From contig JACIXQ010000004.1 of assembly GCA_014360465.1 (NCBI GenBank), positions 1 through 57,234 on the forward strand: a stretch of DNA of 57,234 bases. The letters run 5' to 3'. Numbering within the stretch: the stretch's first letter is position 1; every line of letters begins with the position of its first letter. Below, piece after piece: positions 838 to 11,169 of the stretch. The notes under the pieces were generated by a model. The model searched no databases. It worked only from the letters and a program-made list of their open reading frames with translations, and was not told the origin of the DNA. Made by a program: the position numbers and the translations under genes. This DNA is from a bacterium (GTDB taxonomy: Bacteria > Armatimonadota > JACIXR01).

Positions 838-1518
838 TTACAAATTAGCCCACTTCTCCGCTAAGTCTCCCAACCAAGGAAGCTTGTTTCTCTTGCCTTT
901 TAAGGCTCCAAAGGCAAGCCAAGCCCAAATGAGAAATATGATACCACCTACAAGGGTATTCAACACATAGAGAACAATTGAGCTCGAGGAAGCTCCGCGC
1001 AGGGCTTGAAATAGATTTAGGATTATCCCAAGTGGTAGACGCAATATATATAGAACGGCGGATAATAGAAGAGATTGAATGGCGTGGAATCTGGCAAACT
1101 TGCTTTCTTTCTCCAATAGAAGAACGAGTATGGGGAATATGGCGGGAAGCAGATAACAAAGAAAGCCTTCTATGTTCTCAGCAATTCCTATAGAGGTTCT
1201 TCCAATTGTATAACCATCTCCAGGCTGTTGCATCTCCTTTAAAAGTTCATCGGCTTCTTTCAGGTTCCTTTCTACCTTTTCCAGCTTCCTTTTTATCTCT
1301 CTACGAGAGGGCTCAAGTTTGAGAGCTCTCTCATAGCAATCCCTCGCTTCTTTCCACCTTGCCAGCTCCATTTTTATATCGCCCATCAGTTCAAGAGCGT
1401 CTATGTCATCGGGATAGTTTAAGAGACATTTTTCGCAAGACGATAAAGCAGAATAGTAGTCGCCCTTCTTGAAATAAATATAAGCAAAGCGCAAGAGTTT
1501 CTCTCTTTCCTCTTGCAT
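838..1518 (-). CDS. TPR-domain + DUF4870 (Tic20-like) membrane protein
   Basis: N-terminal TPR motifs (YPDDIDALELMGDI...YERALKLEP). C-terminal ENIEGFLCYLL...EKESKFARFHAIQS with 3 TM segments, ending KLPWLG. Confidence 0.75.
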   Translation of the reverse strand: MQEEREKLLRFAYIYFKKGDYYSALSSCEKCLLNYPDDIDALELMGDIKMELARWKEARDCYERALKLEPSRREIKRKLEKVERNLKEADELLKEMQQPGDGYTIGRTSIGIAENIEGFLCYLLPAIFPILVLLLEKESKFARFHAIQSLLLSAVLYILRLPLGIILNLFQALRGASSSSIVLYVLNTLVGGIIFLIWAWLAFGALKGKRNKLPWLGDLAEKWANL

Positions 1519-1551
1519 ACCTTCTTAATTATTCACCTCTCAGCAGAAATG

Positions 1552-2644
1552 TCAAGGTATATCTATCCCACAAAGAGCGGGGATGCCTACACATAATGTT
1601 TTACCCTTTATAACAGGGTGTCCAAGTTGGGCGCCCTTTCCAAACTCCATTTCCCATTTAATCTTTCCTTCTGGCTCTACAGCAAGCAATTTCCTTCCAG
1701 CAGATATATAAAGAGTGTTATCCTCGGCTAAAGTAAGGAAGCTATTTCCAACTTCTCCAATCTGAAGTTTCCACTTTTGCTCCCCATTTGGTCCAAATGC
1801 ATAAATAAACCCTACTATGGTAGAGACAAAGATATCACCCGCCTTACTTATTGCGAGAGAGGCACCACCTCCCTTGAGTTTTATCTTCCACATAAGCTTT
1901 CCTTGCTGATTAACTGCACAAAGATAGCCATCCCAAGTAGCGATGTATATTGTTCCCCCTTGCCCTATGATGGGAGATGAAGGAATAGGGGAACCTATTT
2001 TTAGCTTCCATTTTATTTCACCATCTTGAGATATGGCGTAAAGATAACCTCCCAAAGAACTTACATAAATCGTTCTATGTGAATCGAGCACAAGAGACGC
2101 CAAAACTGTTCTATCCACACTTACCTGCCATTTAAGGACCCCTTGATGGGTCAGGGCAAATACATATCCTATGTAATTTTCGCCCTCCCCGCCTCCCACA
2201 TAGATTGTTCCATCGCCGCCTATCGTGGGTTGAGAATAGATTCCTTTCCTACCTATTTTTACTTTCCATATCAACTCACCTGTAGAGTTCACAGCGCAGA
2301 TATAACCATCCCAGCTAGCAACATAAACTTCTCCTGCATCTCCCAAAGTTGGAGGAGAAATAGAAAGACATTTCGCATCAAATCTCCATAAAATCCTGCC
2401 CATAGTGTCAACCGCGTAAAGATACCCTTTCCTGTGATGAAGCATAAATTACTCCGTTATTACCTATAGAAGGTGGACCCTTGACCTTCAAGCTTGGCAA
2501 TTCCCATCTTACTTTGGGAATTTGCGAATTTTGGGTAAGGGATTCCCCAAGCTGAGAAGCATATAAGGGGATTAGCATCATTAGAAAAAAAACTATTAAT
2601 GATAAGTAACACGAACAAAATGATTTTTTGGTAAAGAGCGACAT
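1552..2644 (-). pseudogene. Exported PQQ-like/BamB-type beta-propeller protein, +1 frameshift at about 2428-2430
   Basis: ORF 2408-2725 supplies a signal peptide (from Met at 2644) and the first blade (GPPSIGNNGVIYASSQ). ORF 1552-2445 continues with GYLYAV...G.lkW blades. Removing one base in CAGGAAAGGG joins them. Confidence 0.8.
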
Positions 2645-2658
2645 TTTATCCAATGACT

Positions 2659-8803: not shown

Positions 8804-8878
8804 TTCACATTCCTCCTTTACTTTTTACTTAGTGTTTATATATATATGTGCCAATTTTTACGAATTTCGTTGGCGCTT

Positions 8879-9526
8879 TTATTCTAAATTTCCATTACAC
8901 AAGATTTTTAGTAGCTTTAAAGCCTTGGAAAACCTCCACCTTACAGTGCTACTGGGGCAGCCAAGCAACTTCGCCATCCCTTCATAGGAATAACCCTCCA
9001 AATAATAAACTACCACTACCCTATATATTGGAGGAAGACAAGGAATAGCCATTCTCAGATCTTCTATCTCCTCTTCTAATTCTAAACCACTGCTCGCCTC
9101 TTCCTCGGTGTATTTGCTCATATCGCCAGAGAGCTCTGTTTTTCGCCACTTTTTCAAATTCTTCAAACATCTCTTTATCACACGTTCGCTTATCCGCCAG
9201 ATGAAGCTATCAAAATTTCCCTTGCCACCGAACTTCTCTATGCTCTTATATATCTCCAACCTTATTTCGCAATAAACATCTTCCCCATCCACTTTCTTTA
9301 AGCCTTTTCTCCCCTTGAAATAGAAACCTATAGCTTTTCTGACCGTCTCCTCGCATCGCCACCAAATATACTCCCAAGCTTCATCCTTACCAAATGCTTT
9401 AAGAAGCCATTTTATGCAATGATAATCCCATTCCTTCTCATCCTTCCCCTCCAACCTCTTCGCCAGTGCCTTTGCCAGCTCCTCCTCCATCTTGTACCTT
9501 ACCTTGAGAAACTCCTCCGCCCTCAT
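8879..9526 (-). CDS. ECF-type sigma-70 factor
   Basis: C-terminal 215 aa of the 492-aa ORF. Has its own GGTGGTGAG RBS and an ATGA overlap with the corrected upstream stop. Region 2 (EDVYCEIRLEIY...FDSFIWRI) and region 4 (LPP..R.V....YLEGYSYEGMAKLLGCPSSTVRWRFSKA). Confidence 0.8.
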   Translation of the reverse strand: MRAEEFLKVRYKMEEELAKALAKRLEGKDEKEWDYHCIKWLLKAFGKDEAWEYIWWRCEETVRKAIGFYFKGRKGLKKVDGEDVYCEIRLEIYKSIEKFGGKGNFDSFIWRISERVIKRCLKNLKKWRKTELSGDMSKYTEEEASSGLELEEEIEDLRMAIPCLPPIYRVVVVYYLEGYSYEGMAKLLGCPSSTVRWRFSKALKLLKILCNGNLE

Positions 9527-10357
9527 AGTAAGCTCACCACCGTCTTGTGAAGAAAATAGATGAACATTGAAAGGAAAAATAAAAGCAAAAACCTCCTCTC
9601 CCATACAAGCGCCCTTACACCCAATAGCTCCCACCTCTTCCCCCACCAGAGAAATCGATTGCCTCATCCTGTTGAGGATGGGGAAAACATAGCCCTCCCC
9701 CTTGCACACCGCCGGCTGACGAAGCGTTATGAGGAAAAAGATGAACATCAAAAGACACATAAGTGGCGGGAAAATCCTGGAGAAAAGTGAAACAGCATAT
9801 ATCCCCTTCACTATCTGCAATAGCCCCACCCCCAAAAGTCCATAGGCGATGAATGAGCCAAGAATATAAAAGAAGCCAAGATAGAGGATTCTTCTGCGAG
9901 AAAGACCCGTTAAGAGCGTGAATAAGAGGGCGATTATTGAGAAGGCACAGGGGTCAATTCCATCAAGCAAACCAGCGGAGAGAATGGCAAATATGGAAAG
10001 TGAAGGAAGAGATGGCTTGAACGAAAGCTTGGGAGGAGCTCTTTCCCGCTCTTTCAATACAATTGGGAGGTTTTTCTTTATATCCTCATAGGTTGTGAAG
10101 CAATGGGAGGAGACGAAGAGAGCGAGTGTCCCTCCCCATTTCTCCTCGGGAATCTTGTACGATTTATAGTATTGGAGTAAAAGTCCGATATTCTGGGGAT
10201 TGGATAGGTCGTGTTTGATTATCTTTATCTTCTCCTTTTTCTCCAATTCAGCAAGGAATTTCAGCGTCCTCTGACAATCACCACAGGTTGGACTGTAGAA
10301 TATGTGAACCGTCAAAGCATAGCAGGGGAAGGAGAAAAGGAAAGTGAGCTTCCTCAT
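9523..10357 (-). pseudogene. Thioredoxin-like (CGDC) + CcdA/DsbD-like membrane redox protein, apparent +1 frameshift near C5 run 9640-9644
   Basis: FYSPTCGDC, AGLLDGIDPCAFS, several TM helices and a second Cys in VCKGEGY. The +1 frame gives a TM tail RRFLLLFFLSMFIYFLHKTVVSLL* whose stop overlaps the sigma ATG. Confidence 0.7.
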
Positions 10358-11169
10358 TTGAGCCTCGCCCCCAGGATTATGAGGTTAGTGTAGTTCCCCT
10401 CGTAGCTTTTCGCCAGGAGGGACTTGCCATCGTAGAGAAGAAGGAATATGTTTTCCTTTCCCTCCAAGGGAAGGGAGAGATAGCCCACTCCGACATAGGA
10501 ATCAGCCTCCCTTCGCTCCTTAGCCCTATCTGGCTCTCTCCCTTCCCTATCATAGATGAAGCTGACGATTGCCGCTCTTCCCCAGGAAATCTCCCTTTTA
10601 TAGAAATCAAGGGGATTTTCCCCACTTTTGAGCTTGTATATCTCCCTTACCTCCAAATCCTTGCCCTTATATTTTGCGAAATCCCGCAAGCCCTTCCCTA
10701 TGTCGTATATCAGTGGTTTGCCAGGGAGATTGCAGAGGCATTTCTCTATGAAGACATTCAGGGAAGCTATGAATACTTTCTCCGGTTCCTTTCCACCCAA
10801 GCCGAGCTGGGCTAAAAGGATGGCTGAGGCGGTTGCGTGGCTATTGAGGAAGAAGGTAAAGCGAGGGAAATCCTTTATTCTCACAAACTTCTCCAAAGAA
10901 GGGAGATTGAATTCAGCCAACCTACCCTTATCATCAAGGAGAAGATAGCCGATTTCCTTGTTATCGCAGATGATGGGATACTTACGGAAAAGAAGGGAAT
11001 GGATTTTTAAGTTCTCCAACTTACCAAGCTGGGAGTTTTTAGGAGCGAGGTTAAGGGATTTCAGCTTTTGGAGGTAATCAAGGGAGCCTCCCCCAAGGAG
11101 CAATACTCCTCCGAGAGAGAGAGAGAGAGAGAGAATGAGATTAATCAGATAGCGCCTCACTTCTCTCAC
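10354..11169 (-). CDS. Exported protein, probable degenerate C39-like/papain-fold protein
   Basis: Signal peptide. NSHATASAILL and YKREISWGRAAIVSF...SYVGVGY resemble C39-like motifs, but the catalytic Cys/His are not evident. Confidence 0.45.
   Translation of the reverse strand: MREVRRYLINLILSLSLSLGGVLLLGGGSLDYLQKLKSLNLAPKNSQLGKLENLKIHSLLFRKYPIICDNKEIGYLLLDDKGRLAEFNLPSLEKFVRIKDFPRFTFFLNSHATASAILLAQLGLGGKEPEKVFIASLNVFIEKCLCNLPGKPLIYDIGKGLRDFAKYKGKDLEVREIYKLKSGENPLDFYKREISWGRAAIVSFIYDREGREPDRAKERREADSYVGVGYLSLPLEGKENIFLLLYDGKSLLAKSYEGNYTNLIILGARLK
11113..11134. repeat. (GA)11/(TC)11 dinucleotide microsatellite
   Basis: 22 nt of perfect GA repeat encoding LSLSLSL in the signal peptide of the first operon gene. 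Confidence 0.95.

Follow-up and report, generated by a model that had tools for sequence, protein, structure and literature searches.

Double-glycine leaders are treated as a hallmark of cytoplasmic processing coupled to ATP-binding cassette (ABC) export, and genome miners call double-glycine peptides by the presence of a nearby peptidase-containing ABC transporter (PCAT). In these transporters (e.g., ComA, LagD, PCAT1 and LahT) a peptidase domain of family PF03412, which contains a Cys/His catalytic dyad, recognises LSxxELxxIxGG leaders in the cytoplasm and removes them in a step that is coupled to export. Here we describe a locus at positions 838–11,169 of a 57,234-nucleotide (nt) stretch of bacterial DNA (contig JACIXQ010000004.1 of GenBank assembly GCA_014360465.1; the whole stretch is referred to as the window) in which this type of peptidase and this type of leader both appear to be placed outside the cytoplasmic membrane. 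The locus encodes a stand-alone C39-DUF1573 protein with an N-terminal signal peptide and, two genes upstream, a small Cys-rich precursor in which a double-glycine-type leader directly follows a Sec-type signal peptide. These features suggest that the locus is dedicated to the maturation of small disulfide-rich proteins outside the cytoplasm, and that it apparently represents a real, conserved and undescribed variant of double-glycine leader processing that would occur in the periplasm.

The likeness of the window system to PCATs resides in the peptidase family and its Cys/His dyad, in the leader spacing (L-12, S-11, M/L-7, I/V-4, G-2 and G/A-1), and in the combination of a conserved leader with a hypervariable core. 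However, unlike PCATs, the window C39 protein contains no ABC or transmembrane transporter domains, and its peptidase domain is located behind a signal peptide and is accompanied by DUF1573 Ig-like domains after it or, in paralogs, by a LolA-like domain before it. The precursors carry a Sec signal ahead of the leader, which PCAT substrates do not, and their cores are Cys-rich proteins of 75–160 amino acids (aa) and not short peptides. Cleavage would thus be periplasmic, after export and uncoupled from it, in contrast to the export-coupled cleavage by PCATs. A C39 domain fused to an ABC permease and ATPase was found neither at the locus nor among the C39 matches of the genome, and the leader of the precursor does not occupy the extreme N-terminus free of a Sec signal. 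Because it has no ABC part and its substrate is Sec-signalled, the window peptidase falls outside the PCAT definition, although it is a C39 peptidase by sequence and dyad.

Export of a C39 peptidase has a precedent in the Pseudomonas Fap system: its FapD is a C39 that Sec carries to the periplasm, and secretion depends on the active-site Cys of this peptidase (PMC5557850). In the part of that report drawn on here, the Fap proteins have no canonical GG leaders and the substrate of FapD is given as unknown. FapD resembles the window C39 in being a stand-alone, Sec-exported C39 encoded in an operon for extracytoplasmic protein assembly (as far as that part of PMC5557850 describes it), but in the window, unlike in the Fap system, a substrate with a canonical leader is encoded beside the peptidase. 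The window protein is not a member of the FapD family, scoring 14.5 bits against the NCBIfam model NF058616 (cut-off 330), and Pfam and NCBIfam searches found no Fap-type family among the ten operon products. In the literature searched, from which subscription journals and supplements were left out, we found no description of C39 together with DUF1573 and none of a double-glycine leader behind a Sec signal; on stand-alone, periplasmic or secreted C39 the Fap work alone was relevant, and a further report (PMC3482391) concerns, in the part drawn on here, toxin C39 domains. An earlier note on this DNA, made from the sequence alone, had stated that no characterised example was known. In view of the FapD precedent, this statement needs to be restricted to the pairing with a canonical leader: the exported C39 class has been described (PMC5557850, same part), and the Sec-plus-GG-leader substrate has apparently not been reported in print.

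The Exported C39 Peptidase and Its Candidate Precursor

The two proteins that carry the argument comprise the following features:
8723–8803, minus strand: Sec-type signal peptide of the precursor, residues 1–27 (MR, hydrophobic core, ...CMA), assigned from the sequence
8684–8722, minus strand: double-glycine-type leader LLSDEVMASIRGA, precursor residues 28–40, assigned by matrix rank and recurrence
8450–8683, minus strand: Cys-rich mature part, precursor residues 41–117 and stop codon, assigned from alignments
6977–7348, minus strand: C39 peptidase domain (PF03412), residues 35–158 of the C39-DUF1573 protein, behind an N-terminal signal or anchor
5990–6958, minus strand: DUF1573/HYDIN-type Ig-like domain (residues 165–264) and beta-rich C-terminal region of the same protein (PF07610, PF22544)

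The 486-aa C39-DUF1573 protein matches PF03412 with 40.5 bits (cut-off 22), which makes it a member of the C39 family, and PF07610 and PF22544 with 53.3 and 53.9 bits, respectively, in agreement with the domain make-up that had been assigned to it in the earlier note. A homolog search with this protein returned 14 proteins. A profile of 16 relatives identifies the LahT150 double-glycine protease (6mpz, E 6.8e-15), followed by the PCAT1 and ComA structures, and it also matches the inactive C39-like domain of HlyB (3zua, E 3.8e-7); the DUF1573 region gives Protein Data Bank profile matches to the Ig domains of HYDIN and FAP65. In the catalytic columns of the window C39, the Cys (C40, in the motif SCG) and the His (H115, in EHF) are present, and the position of the third catalytic residue, which in LahT and ComA is an Asp located about 16 residues after the His, is occupied by a Gly (G131, in VQVIG). 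This Gly is shared with the C39 proteins of contig C10 of the same genome and of genome G044, while Asp or Asn occurs elsewhere and Asp in both paralogs on contig C124. The N-terminus of every relative contains a hydrophobic segment that stops a few residues short of the catalytic Cys, so that the domain appears to be built to lie outside the cytoplasmic membrane, where we infer it to be located. The genome, which is 97.8% complete, contains only four PF03412 matches, all in open frames of 480–515 aa, and none of them therefore has the length of a C39-ABC transporter.

The 117-aa precursor has the layout MRYTVYCFLVLICILLLGSAIPTQCMA / LLSDEVMASIRGA / SGPPYC..., which corresponds to the signal peptide, leader and Cys-rich part that the earlier note had recognised in it. 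Its start codon is a GTG (8803) with an AGGAGG 8 nt upstream, and no AGGAGG-like site precedes the internal Met26. The signal-peptide region of the four close homologs is hydrophobic throughout, though only 2 of its residues are invariant. Met26 is invariant in these four homologs, and a Met is found at the same place in G121, G081 and L043; most of the distant homologs have no Met ahead of the leader, and translation must start upstream there. The positions L-12, S-11, M-7, I-4, G-2 and A-1 of the leader fit the classical LSxxELxxIxGG spacing. When the 11,082 open reading frames (ORFs) of the genome are scored with a position matrix built from 13 leaders of other genomes only, the window precursor has the highest score (29.9) and its C10 paralog the next highest (22.0), and the third match lies inside a 426-aa ORF without an upstream hydrophobic stretch. 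The core contains seven Cys, six of which are invariant among the four close homologs, and a conserved stretch, CVKLPTSLP. A homolog search with the precursor returned three proteins. Structure prediction yielded an unusable AlphaFold2 (AF2) model of the mature part (four sequences; predicted local distance difference test, pLDDT, 45.7; predicted template modelling score, pTM, 0.22), and the predicted complex of C39 residues 30–165 (alignment A1) with precursor residues 27–117 (alignment A4) reached a median of 0.46 against 0.49 for the control, which weighs neither way. Assignment of the family as lipoprotein precursors was rejected because the hydrophobic core of most precursors does not end in a Cys.

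Recurrence Within the Genome and the Phylum

Related loci are present on three other contigs of the same genome. Contig C10 contains sigma, precursor, LolA-like, C39-DUF1573 and tetratricopeptide repeat (TPR) genes, and contig C5 a homolog of the first, 271-aa product of the window operon, an intact 339-aa thioredoxin-like/transmembrane gene and a separate sigma gene. On contig C124, two precursors ending ...ALSEVQMENAKAG/CW... are found together with tandem proteins of about 500 aa (locus L059, 2890–4407 and 4861–6357), in which an N-terminal LolA_like domain is fused to a C-terminal C39 domain. The C39 domains of these fusions keep Cys, His and Asp, and each fusion has its own GG-leader precursor ahead. 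The same contig also encodes two DUF2092/LolA-like proteins, a 267-aa homolog of the 271-aa protein and TPR proteins, and its paralogs match PF17131 and PF09865. Between paralogous loci the precursor is the most divergent gene, with 64% identity against 75–96% for its neighbours.

Of 201 genomes sampled from the phylum, 43 contain a match to the C39-DUF1573 protein (E ≤ 1e-5), and rows that include the C39 part were counted in 19 of the 201 (own reading of the match table). In most of the 20 stretches around such C39 genes that were examined for small ORFs, leader-bearing Cys-rich ORFs are located upstream on the same strand. These ORFs encode a signal peptide, then the motif L[ST]xx[DE]Mxx[IV]xG[GA], then 6–15 Cys; the leader stands directly behind the signal peptide in 17 precursors, and a hydrophobic signal precedes it in all 17 listed. 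Four further precursors (L043, L054, L072 and L074) were detected by a matrix built without them. Across families the leader alone can be aligned, the cores differing in length (76–158 aa) and Cys pattern. The gene order precursor, LolA-like, C39 is conserved, and the three genes recur at three further loci of the source genome and in other families of the phylum. Leader ORFs thus recur beside exported C39 genes in a conserved order, two points on which the earlier note had made its proposal depend.

The full row of ten genes is conserved within the genus only. In G044 the genes from the precursor through the TPR-transmembrane protein occur in the same order as in the window, and in G121 genes for the 271-aa-like and thioredoxin-like/transmembrane proteins stand beside a second precursor and LolA-like pair. 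A scan of genome contigs for related loci returned the G121 contig only, and a scan of metagenome contigs returned five short loci, with leader ORFs at L072 and L074 and none seen on the short contigs of L071, L073 and L075. Related Atlas clusters are commonest in Planctomycetota and Verrucomicrobiota, which is a lead and not a phylum assignment.

Several further observations were made at these loci. In L044 (G133:C8, 9514–12484) the C39-DUF1573 gene is split into pieces of 311 and 356 aa by two inserted ORFs (10490–11438) that are transposase-like by eye. The C39 genes of C124 and G121 are followed by proteins of 579 and 463 aa (L059, 7220–8959; L039, 8475–9866) that are 46% identical to each other, match no Pfam or NCBIfam family and have no counterpart in the window locus. 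Beside the C124 locus lies a 586-aa ORF (11927–13687) with YD/RHS-type repeats by eye, and similar repeat-like sequence is found downstream of the C5 locus (C5, 1–2000).

Co-variation of the Leader With the Catalytic Dyad

Catalytic residues and neighbours were examined for 24 C39 genes. Both Cys and His are kept in 18 of them, and 15 of these 18 have a leader-bearing neighbour. Both residues, or the domain, are lost in five (L041a, L045a, L049, L055 and L057), none of which (0/5) has such a neighbour. The Cys site of the G044 gene is unreadable, and this gene does have a leader-bearing neighbour (1/1). Four of the five dyad-less genes are accompanied, in the same place, by an ORF with a signal and a Cys-rich part and no leader:
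L045, 6403–6819: leaderless signal plus Cys-rich ORF
L049, 8669–9208: leaderless signal plus Cys-rich ORF
L055, 10696–11061: leaderless signal plus Cys-rich ORF
L057, 7961–8332: leaderless signal plus Cys-rich ORF

When 15/18 is compared with 0/5, Fisher's one-sided test yields p of about 0.002 (hand calculation; the loci are not phylogenetically independent). The dyad losses may represent perhaps two or three lineages or events only, and the co-variation is for this reason suggestive and does not amount to statistical proof. A dyad that serves leader removal would nevertheless be expected to produce this pattern. That dead C39-DUF1573 genes are retained indicates that the DUF1573/LolA-like scaffold serves some purpose besides proteolysis. 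What was observed here are the features of the sequences, the conservation of these features and this co-variation of leader and catalytic residues. Recurrence, gene order, dyad co-variation and the absence from the genome of a C39 match of C39-ABC length together support, by sequence comparison, the core idea of the earlier note, i.e., a Sec signal, a GG/GA leader and a stand-alone exported C39 without a PCAT.

Probable Leader Removal and Its Alternatives

We consider it probable that the exported C39 removes the leader in the periplasm by cutting after G39-A40. In this model, the 117-aa precursor would be exported by Sec via its ordinary N-terminal signal peptide, and signal peptidase would leave the 13-residue propeptide LLSDEVMASIRGA on the Cys-rich part. 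The periplasmic C39 domain would then recognise this propeptide, as PCAT peptidases recognise LSxxELxxIxGG leaders in the cytoplasm, and the cut would free a 77-aa mature protein beginning SGPPYC. The LolA-like protein and the Ig-like DUF1573 domains could function as periplasmic escort or docking partners, a role that is probably older or broader than proteolysis, since loci with a dead protease still keep their DUF1573 and LolA-like genes. The thioredoxin/CcdA-like protein, the TPR proteins, the propeller and the extracytoplasmic function (ECF) sigma factor would be lineage-specific accessories for disulfide handling, assembly and regulation, and oxidative folding would be helped by the thioredoxin/CcdA-like protein where it is present. 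Export, cleavage, the cleavage site, the roles of the partners and the function of the product are what we infer from these features. Our guess for the product is a secreted or surface effector under diversifying pressure: a bacteriocin-like effector, or an envelope or surface protein of variable sequence, would agree with the rapid divergence, with the presence of several copies in one genome and with the dedicated sigma factor.

Several points weigh against periplasmic leader removal. The support for it consists of comparative sequence evidence, and the signal peptides were judged by eye. With a Gly in place of the catalytic Asp, the C39 proteins of the window, C10 and G044 may have little or no activity. 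Three genes with intact Cys and His (L045b, L050 and L056) have no leader ORF nearby. The residue at -1 of the leader varies among G, A, T, R and S across families, a wider range than that of known C39 substrates. No outer-membrane channel that would release the product from the cell is encoded in the operon, and the frameshifted propeller gene (see below) indicates that the window locus may be partly decayed. Finally, an internal start at the invariant Met26, conceivable but extremely improbable (see below), would give the window family a classical cytoplasmic leader.

A more far-reaching proposal, which we regard as possible but doubtful, is that the Sec signal and double-glycine propeptide form the address tag of an unrecognised two-step secretion or sorting pathway in a Planctomycetes-Verrucomicrobia-Chlamydiae (PVC)-like phylum. 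A complex formed in the periplasm by the LolA-like carrier and the C39-DUF1573 protein would capture the tagged Cys-rich proteins, cleavage would be linked both to their oxidative folding and to their transfer to the outer membrane or surface, and in derived lineages the pathway would run without tag and protease. If true, this pathway would correspond in the periplasm to PCAT export and would stand beside the Fap route, which depends on FapD, as a sister case.

It is unlikely that the GG-type segment is an uncut periplasmic docking or sorting tag, which the C39 domain would bind in a HlyB-like manner before handing the protein to the LolA-like/DUF1573 escort for the outer membrane or surface. 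Such a tag would agree with the missing third catalytic residue of the window C39, with the match of the C39 profile to the inactive HlyB domain, and with the persistence of dead C39-DUF1573 genes beside Cys-rich neighbours, which points to a non-proteolytic scaffold role; these 5 of 24 dyad-less genes recall the C39-like domain of HlyB, which is inactive and serves binding only. However, the HlyB domain is cytoplasmic and part of an ABC transporter, and the window domain keeps Cys and His. Across the readable genes the two residues are either kept together (18 of the 24) or lost jointly (the other five), which is the pattern of a working dyad, and the leader vanishes where the dyad is lost, whereas a pure binding tag would be expected to persist.

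Very unlikely, in our view, is the possibility that C39 processes another protein (the LolA-like, a TPR or an envelope protein) and that the GG-likeness of the small ORFs is an unrelated family trait. Cleavage of the precursor is indeed deduced from sequence, and the substrate of FapD, which in the part of PMC5557850 drawn on here is still unknown, has no canonical leader. However, the leader motif has the exact classical spacing, is the one conserved feature of Cys-rich proteins that cannot be aligned elsewhere along their length, shows high specificity genome-wide (rank 1 among 11,082 ORFs) and co-varies with the catalytic dyad. Least credible, and in fact extremely improbable, is a start of the window family at Met26, which would produce a cytoplasmic double-glycine peptide (MALLSDEVMASIRGA plus core) for an unidentified transporter and leave the upstream codons untranslated: the invariance of Met26 in the four close homologs and the Met at that place in G121, G081 and L043 are countered by the strong AGGAGG before the upstream GTG and none before Met26, by the 25 upstream codons being open and hydrophobic in all homologs despite low identity, by most families having no Met at that place, by all C39 matches of the genome lying in frames too short for a C39-ABC transporter, and by the location of the C39 domain itself behind a signal peptide.

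Operon Layout and Partner Genes

The ten products of the locus are all encoded on the minus strand and are co-directional across 838–11,169, and most neighbouring genes overlap or are separated by gaps of at most 75 nt, in line with the single tight operon of the earlier note. In order of transcription, the ORFs and the features assigned to them are:
10354–11169, minus strand: 271-aa ORF, first in order; membrane-anchored or exported protein with a predicted papain-like (clan CA) fold (AF2, Foldseek)
8879–10357, minus strand: 492-aa ORF (redox plus sigma), second in order
9644–10357, minus strand: residues 1–238 of the 492-aa ORF; signal peptide, thioredoxin-like stretch (CGDC) and first three transmembrane helices, DsbD/CcdA-like (paralog, weak PF02683)
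8879–9382, minus strand: ECF-type sigma-70 factor, regions 2 and 4 (TIGR02937, PF08281)
8450–8803, minus strand: 117-aa precursor ORF, third in order
7419–8405, minus strand: 328-aa ORF, fourth in order; LolA-like/TP_0789-like exported protein (predicted fold, synteny)
5990–7450, minus strand: 486-aa C39-DUF1573 ORF, fifth in order
5389–6021, minus strand: 210-aa ORF, sixth in order
5235–6021, minus strand: exported protein with C-terminal TPR (comparison with the C10 paralog)
2659–5307, minus strand: 882-aa ORF, seventh in order; large exported TPR protein with YbgF/BamD-type repeats (TPR families, TIGR02795/TIGR03302)
2408–2725 and 1552–2445, minus strand: 105-aa and 297-aa ORFs (propeller), eighth in order
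1552–2725, minus strand: PQQ/BamB-type beta-propeller with signal peptide (PF13360, PF13570)
838–1518, minus strand: 226-aa ORF, last in order; N-terminal TPR and C-terminal region with several transmembrane segments (TPR matches)

Pfam and NCBIfam searches of the ten products found no ABC transporter, YcaO, radical-SAM or lanthipeptide family, as the earlier note had stated, and a lanthipeptide, YcaO or radical-SAM cluster for ribosomally synthesised and post-translationally modified peptides (RiPPs) was rejected on this basis. Scans for regulatory sites returned 22 promoter-like sites (21.0 expected) and 9 terminator-like sites (11.8 expected), and alignment of three loci revealed no shared ECF-type promoter upstream of the precursor.

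The label LolA-like, which the earlier note had given to the 328-aa protein, rests on predicted-structure likeness and synteny and is no Pfam assignment: the protein matches no Pfam or NCBIfam family, and its Atlas model (pTM 0.77) finds PF17131 clusters at template modelling (TM) scores of 0.58–0.59, both sides of this comparison being predicted models. The predicted fold may resemble that of LolA/LolB-like carriers (PF17131 TP_0789-like, DUF2092), but the partner of the 328-aa protein, unlike that of LolA/LolB, would be a non-lipoprotein Cys-rich protein. The Atlas matches include a Planctomycetota cluster that also carries Peptidase_C39, and a LolA-like domain is fused to a C39 peptidase in the C124 paralogs, a combination that we did not find described for Lol proteins in the literature searched. 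An exported ORF of 300–390 aa lies between precursor and C39 in 10 of 16 tabulated loci. Iterated jackhmmer searches join 10 of 18 such in-between proteins to the LolA_like domain fused to C39 on C124, and profile comparison adds the L040/L041 pair (88.8%) to this LolA-like group; between the window 328-aa group and the LolA-like group of the other loci hhalign gives a weak match (E 0.0054, probability 6.8%).

The 271-aa protein, a C39-like pseudoenzyme according to the earlier note, has no Pfam or NCBIfam match and belongs to a family of 27 clusters (E ≤ 1e-3) among 1.84 billion representatives. Its AF2 model (pLDDT 92.8) has a papain-like fold, and Foldseek places it closest to prostaphopain B (1x9y, E 1.3e-5, probability 1.0), followed by Lpg2622, staphopain and the SpeB zymogen, with TM scores of only 0.3–0.47. 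Five residues stand out as invariant in the family (H111, C144, C146, G229 and N262; alignment A5), C144 and C146 being invariant or nearly so. The helix 111–124, which is expected to carry the nucleophile, starts with the invariant His111 and not with a Cys, and the strand position expected for the catalytic His is Ser or Thr in most members. A pseudoenzyme is plausible for this predicted structure, in which the canonical Cys appears to be absent; its nearest relatives are, however, staphopain/SpeB zymogens and not specifically C39, while an Atlas feature search returned Peptidase_C39_2-like clusters at 0.93.

The second ORF combines functions that the earlier note had assigned to two genes. 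Residues 1–238 are 93% identical to the same residues of the intact 339-aa paralog on C5, which has DPCAF in its first transmembrane helix and FCTGQ in a later one. The likeness of this part, with its CGDC thioredoxin-like stretch and transmembrane helices, to CcdA/DsbD is weak: the 492-aa ORF scores 16.8 bits against PF02683 (cut-off 27.1) with weak Glutaredoxin matches, the C5 paralog has no PF02683 match at E ≤ 0.05, and the G121 homolog has weak matches to ArsG and thioredoxin models. The ECF sigma factor was identified as the earlier note had it, with residues 326–484 matching TIGR02937 at 62.5 bits (cut-off 42.9) and PF08281 at 43.6 bits (cut-off 25.7), and it is a separate gene in the C5 paralogous locus and in G030.

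Of the two TPR proteins proposed earlier, the 882-aa protein shows the repeats directly (its likely true start is MKKTPIKW, 32 codons into the ORF, by comparison with the C10 paralog), and the other shows them in the intact 262/264-aa versions, the 210-aa gene of the window being broken by a frameshift. The propeller was likewise recognised correctly (PF13360, PF13570), although its gene is frameshifted in the window. The 226-aa protein, described earlier as TPR-DUF4870, has the TPR N-terminus, but DUF4870 was not detected in it at E up to 1; a paralog with 93% identity is located at the edge of the C124 locus.

Outside the operon, a 1108-aa exported protein (11492–14818) is encoded upstream and divergently transcribed, and contigs C140 and C151 encode paralogs of it (about 26% identity). 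The genome also contains one FtsZ_C match, and DUF1559/SBP_bac_10 is matched 38 times in its N-terminal, prepilin-like part, including one match within the window (25516–25710); DUF1559 was found in none of the control genomes, against the 38 matches of the source genome.

Assembly State of the Window Copy

Comparison with the paralogs by tblastn reveals three lesions in the window copy (5419, 2428 and 9654/9656), which were inspected in Logan contigs of four runs (X1–X4) from hydrocarbon and oil-facility metagenomes of three studies; X3 and X6 are labelled metatranscriptomic and were flagged as probably DNA. The first lesion to be considered is the junction within the second ORF:
9654–9656, strand not given: junction fusing the redox and sigma genes in frame (tblastn of C5 proteins, contigs)

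At this point the window lacks about 175 nt (58 codons, transmembrane helices 4–5 of the CcdA-like gene) that the C5 paralog has. No listed contig of X1–X4 bridges 9654/9656, loose contig ends on either side encode the segment found in the C5 paralog, and the depth of X1 is 15–40 across 8952–11200 against about 8.7 elsewhere. The unbridged junction, the loose ends and the raised depth make it most likely that the 492-aa redox-sigma fusion is a misjoin in a collapsed repeat and thus an assembly artefact. Two separate genes, as in the paralogs and as proposed in the earlier note, would be the original state of what reads as one ORF in the window.

At 5419 one extra base splits the TPR-tailed protein, and residues 1–201 and 202–262 of the 262-aa C10 paralog are encoded in successive frames. 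This base is absent from contigs of X1 (8 of 8 depth) and X3, and the frameshift is accordingly likely to be an assembly error or a variant. The frameshift near 2428 splits the propeller into 105 and 297 aa, and the blade motif continues across the frame change; the G044 homolog is a single ORF of 354 aa. Here the contigs of X1 and X2 agree with the window, and a divergent X3 contig has one base less.

The precursor gene itself is spanned as a whole by an X2 contig (8235–9003) that shows no difference from the window. At 8473, contigs of X2 and X4 that match the LolA-like side continue into the C-terminus of a C10-type precursor (RATTTGCGG...), which suggests that precursor variants sit between near-identical flanks. 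The joints 7359/7482 and 8310/8447 are each seen in single low-depth contigs, the latter with a 27-letter side.

Concluding Remarks

If periplasmic processing of the precursor is true, leader recognition by C39 peptidases would be a portable function that can be used outside the cytoplasm, and periplasmic C39 peptidases would gain a defined candidate substrate, which is still missing for FapD. It would also mean that poorly studied bacteria contain a pool of fast-evolving, disulfide-rich secreted proteins that current bacteriocin and RiPP miners would miss. Because the leader is lost wherever the protease is dead, this hypothesis lends itself to a direct test.

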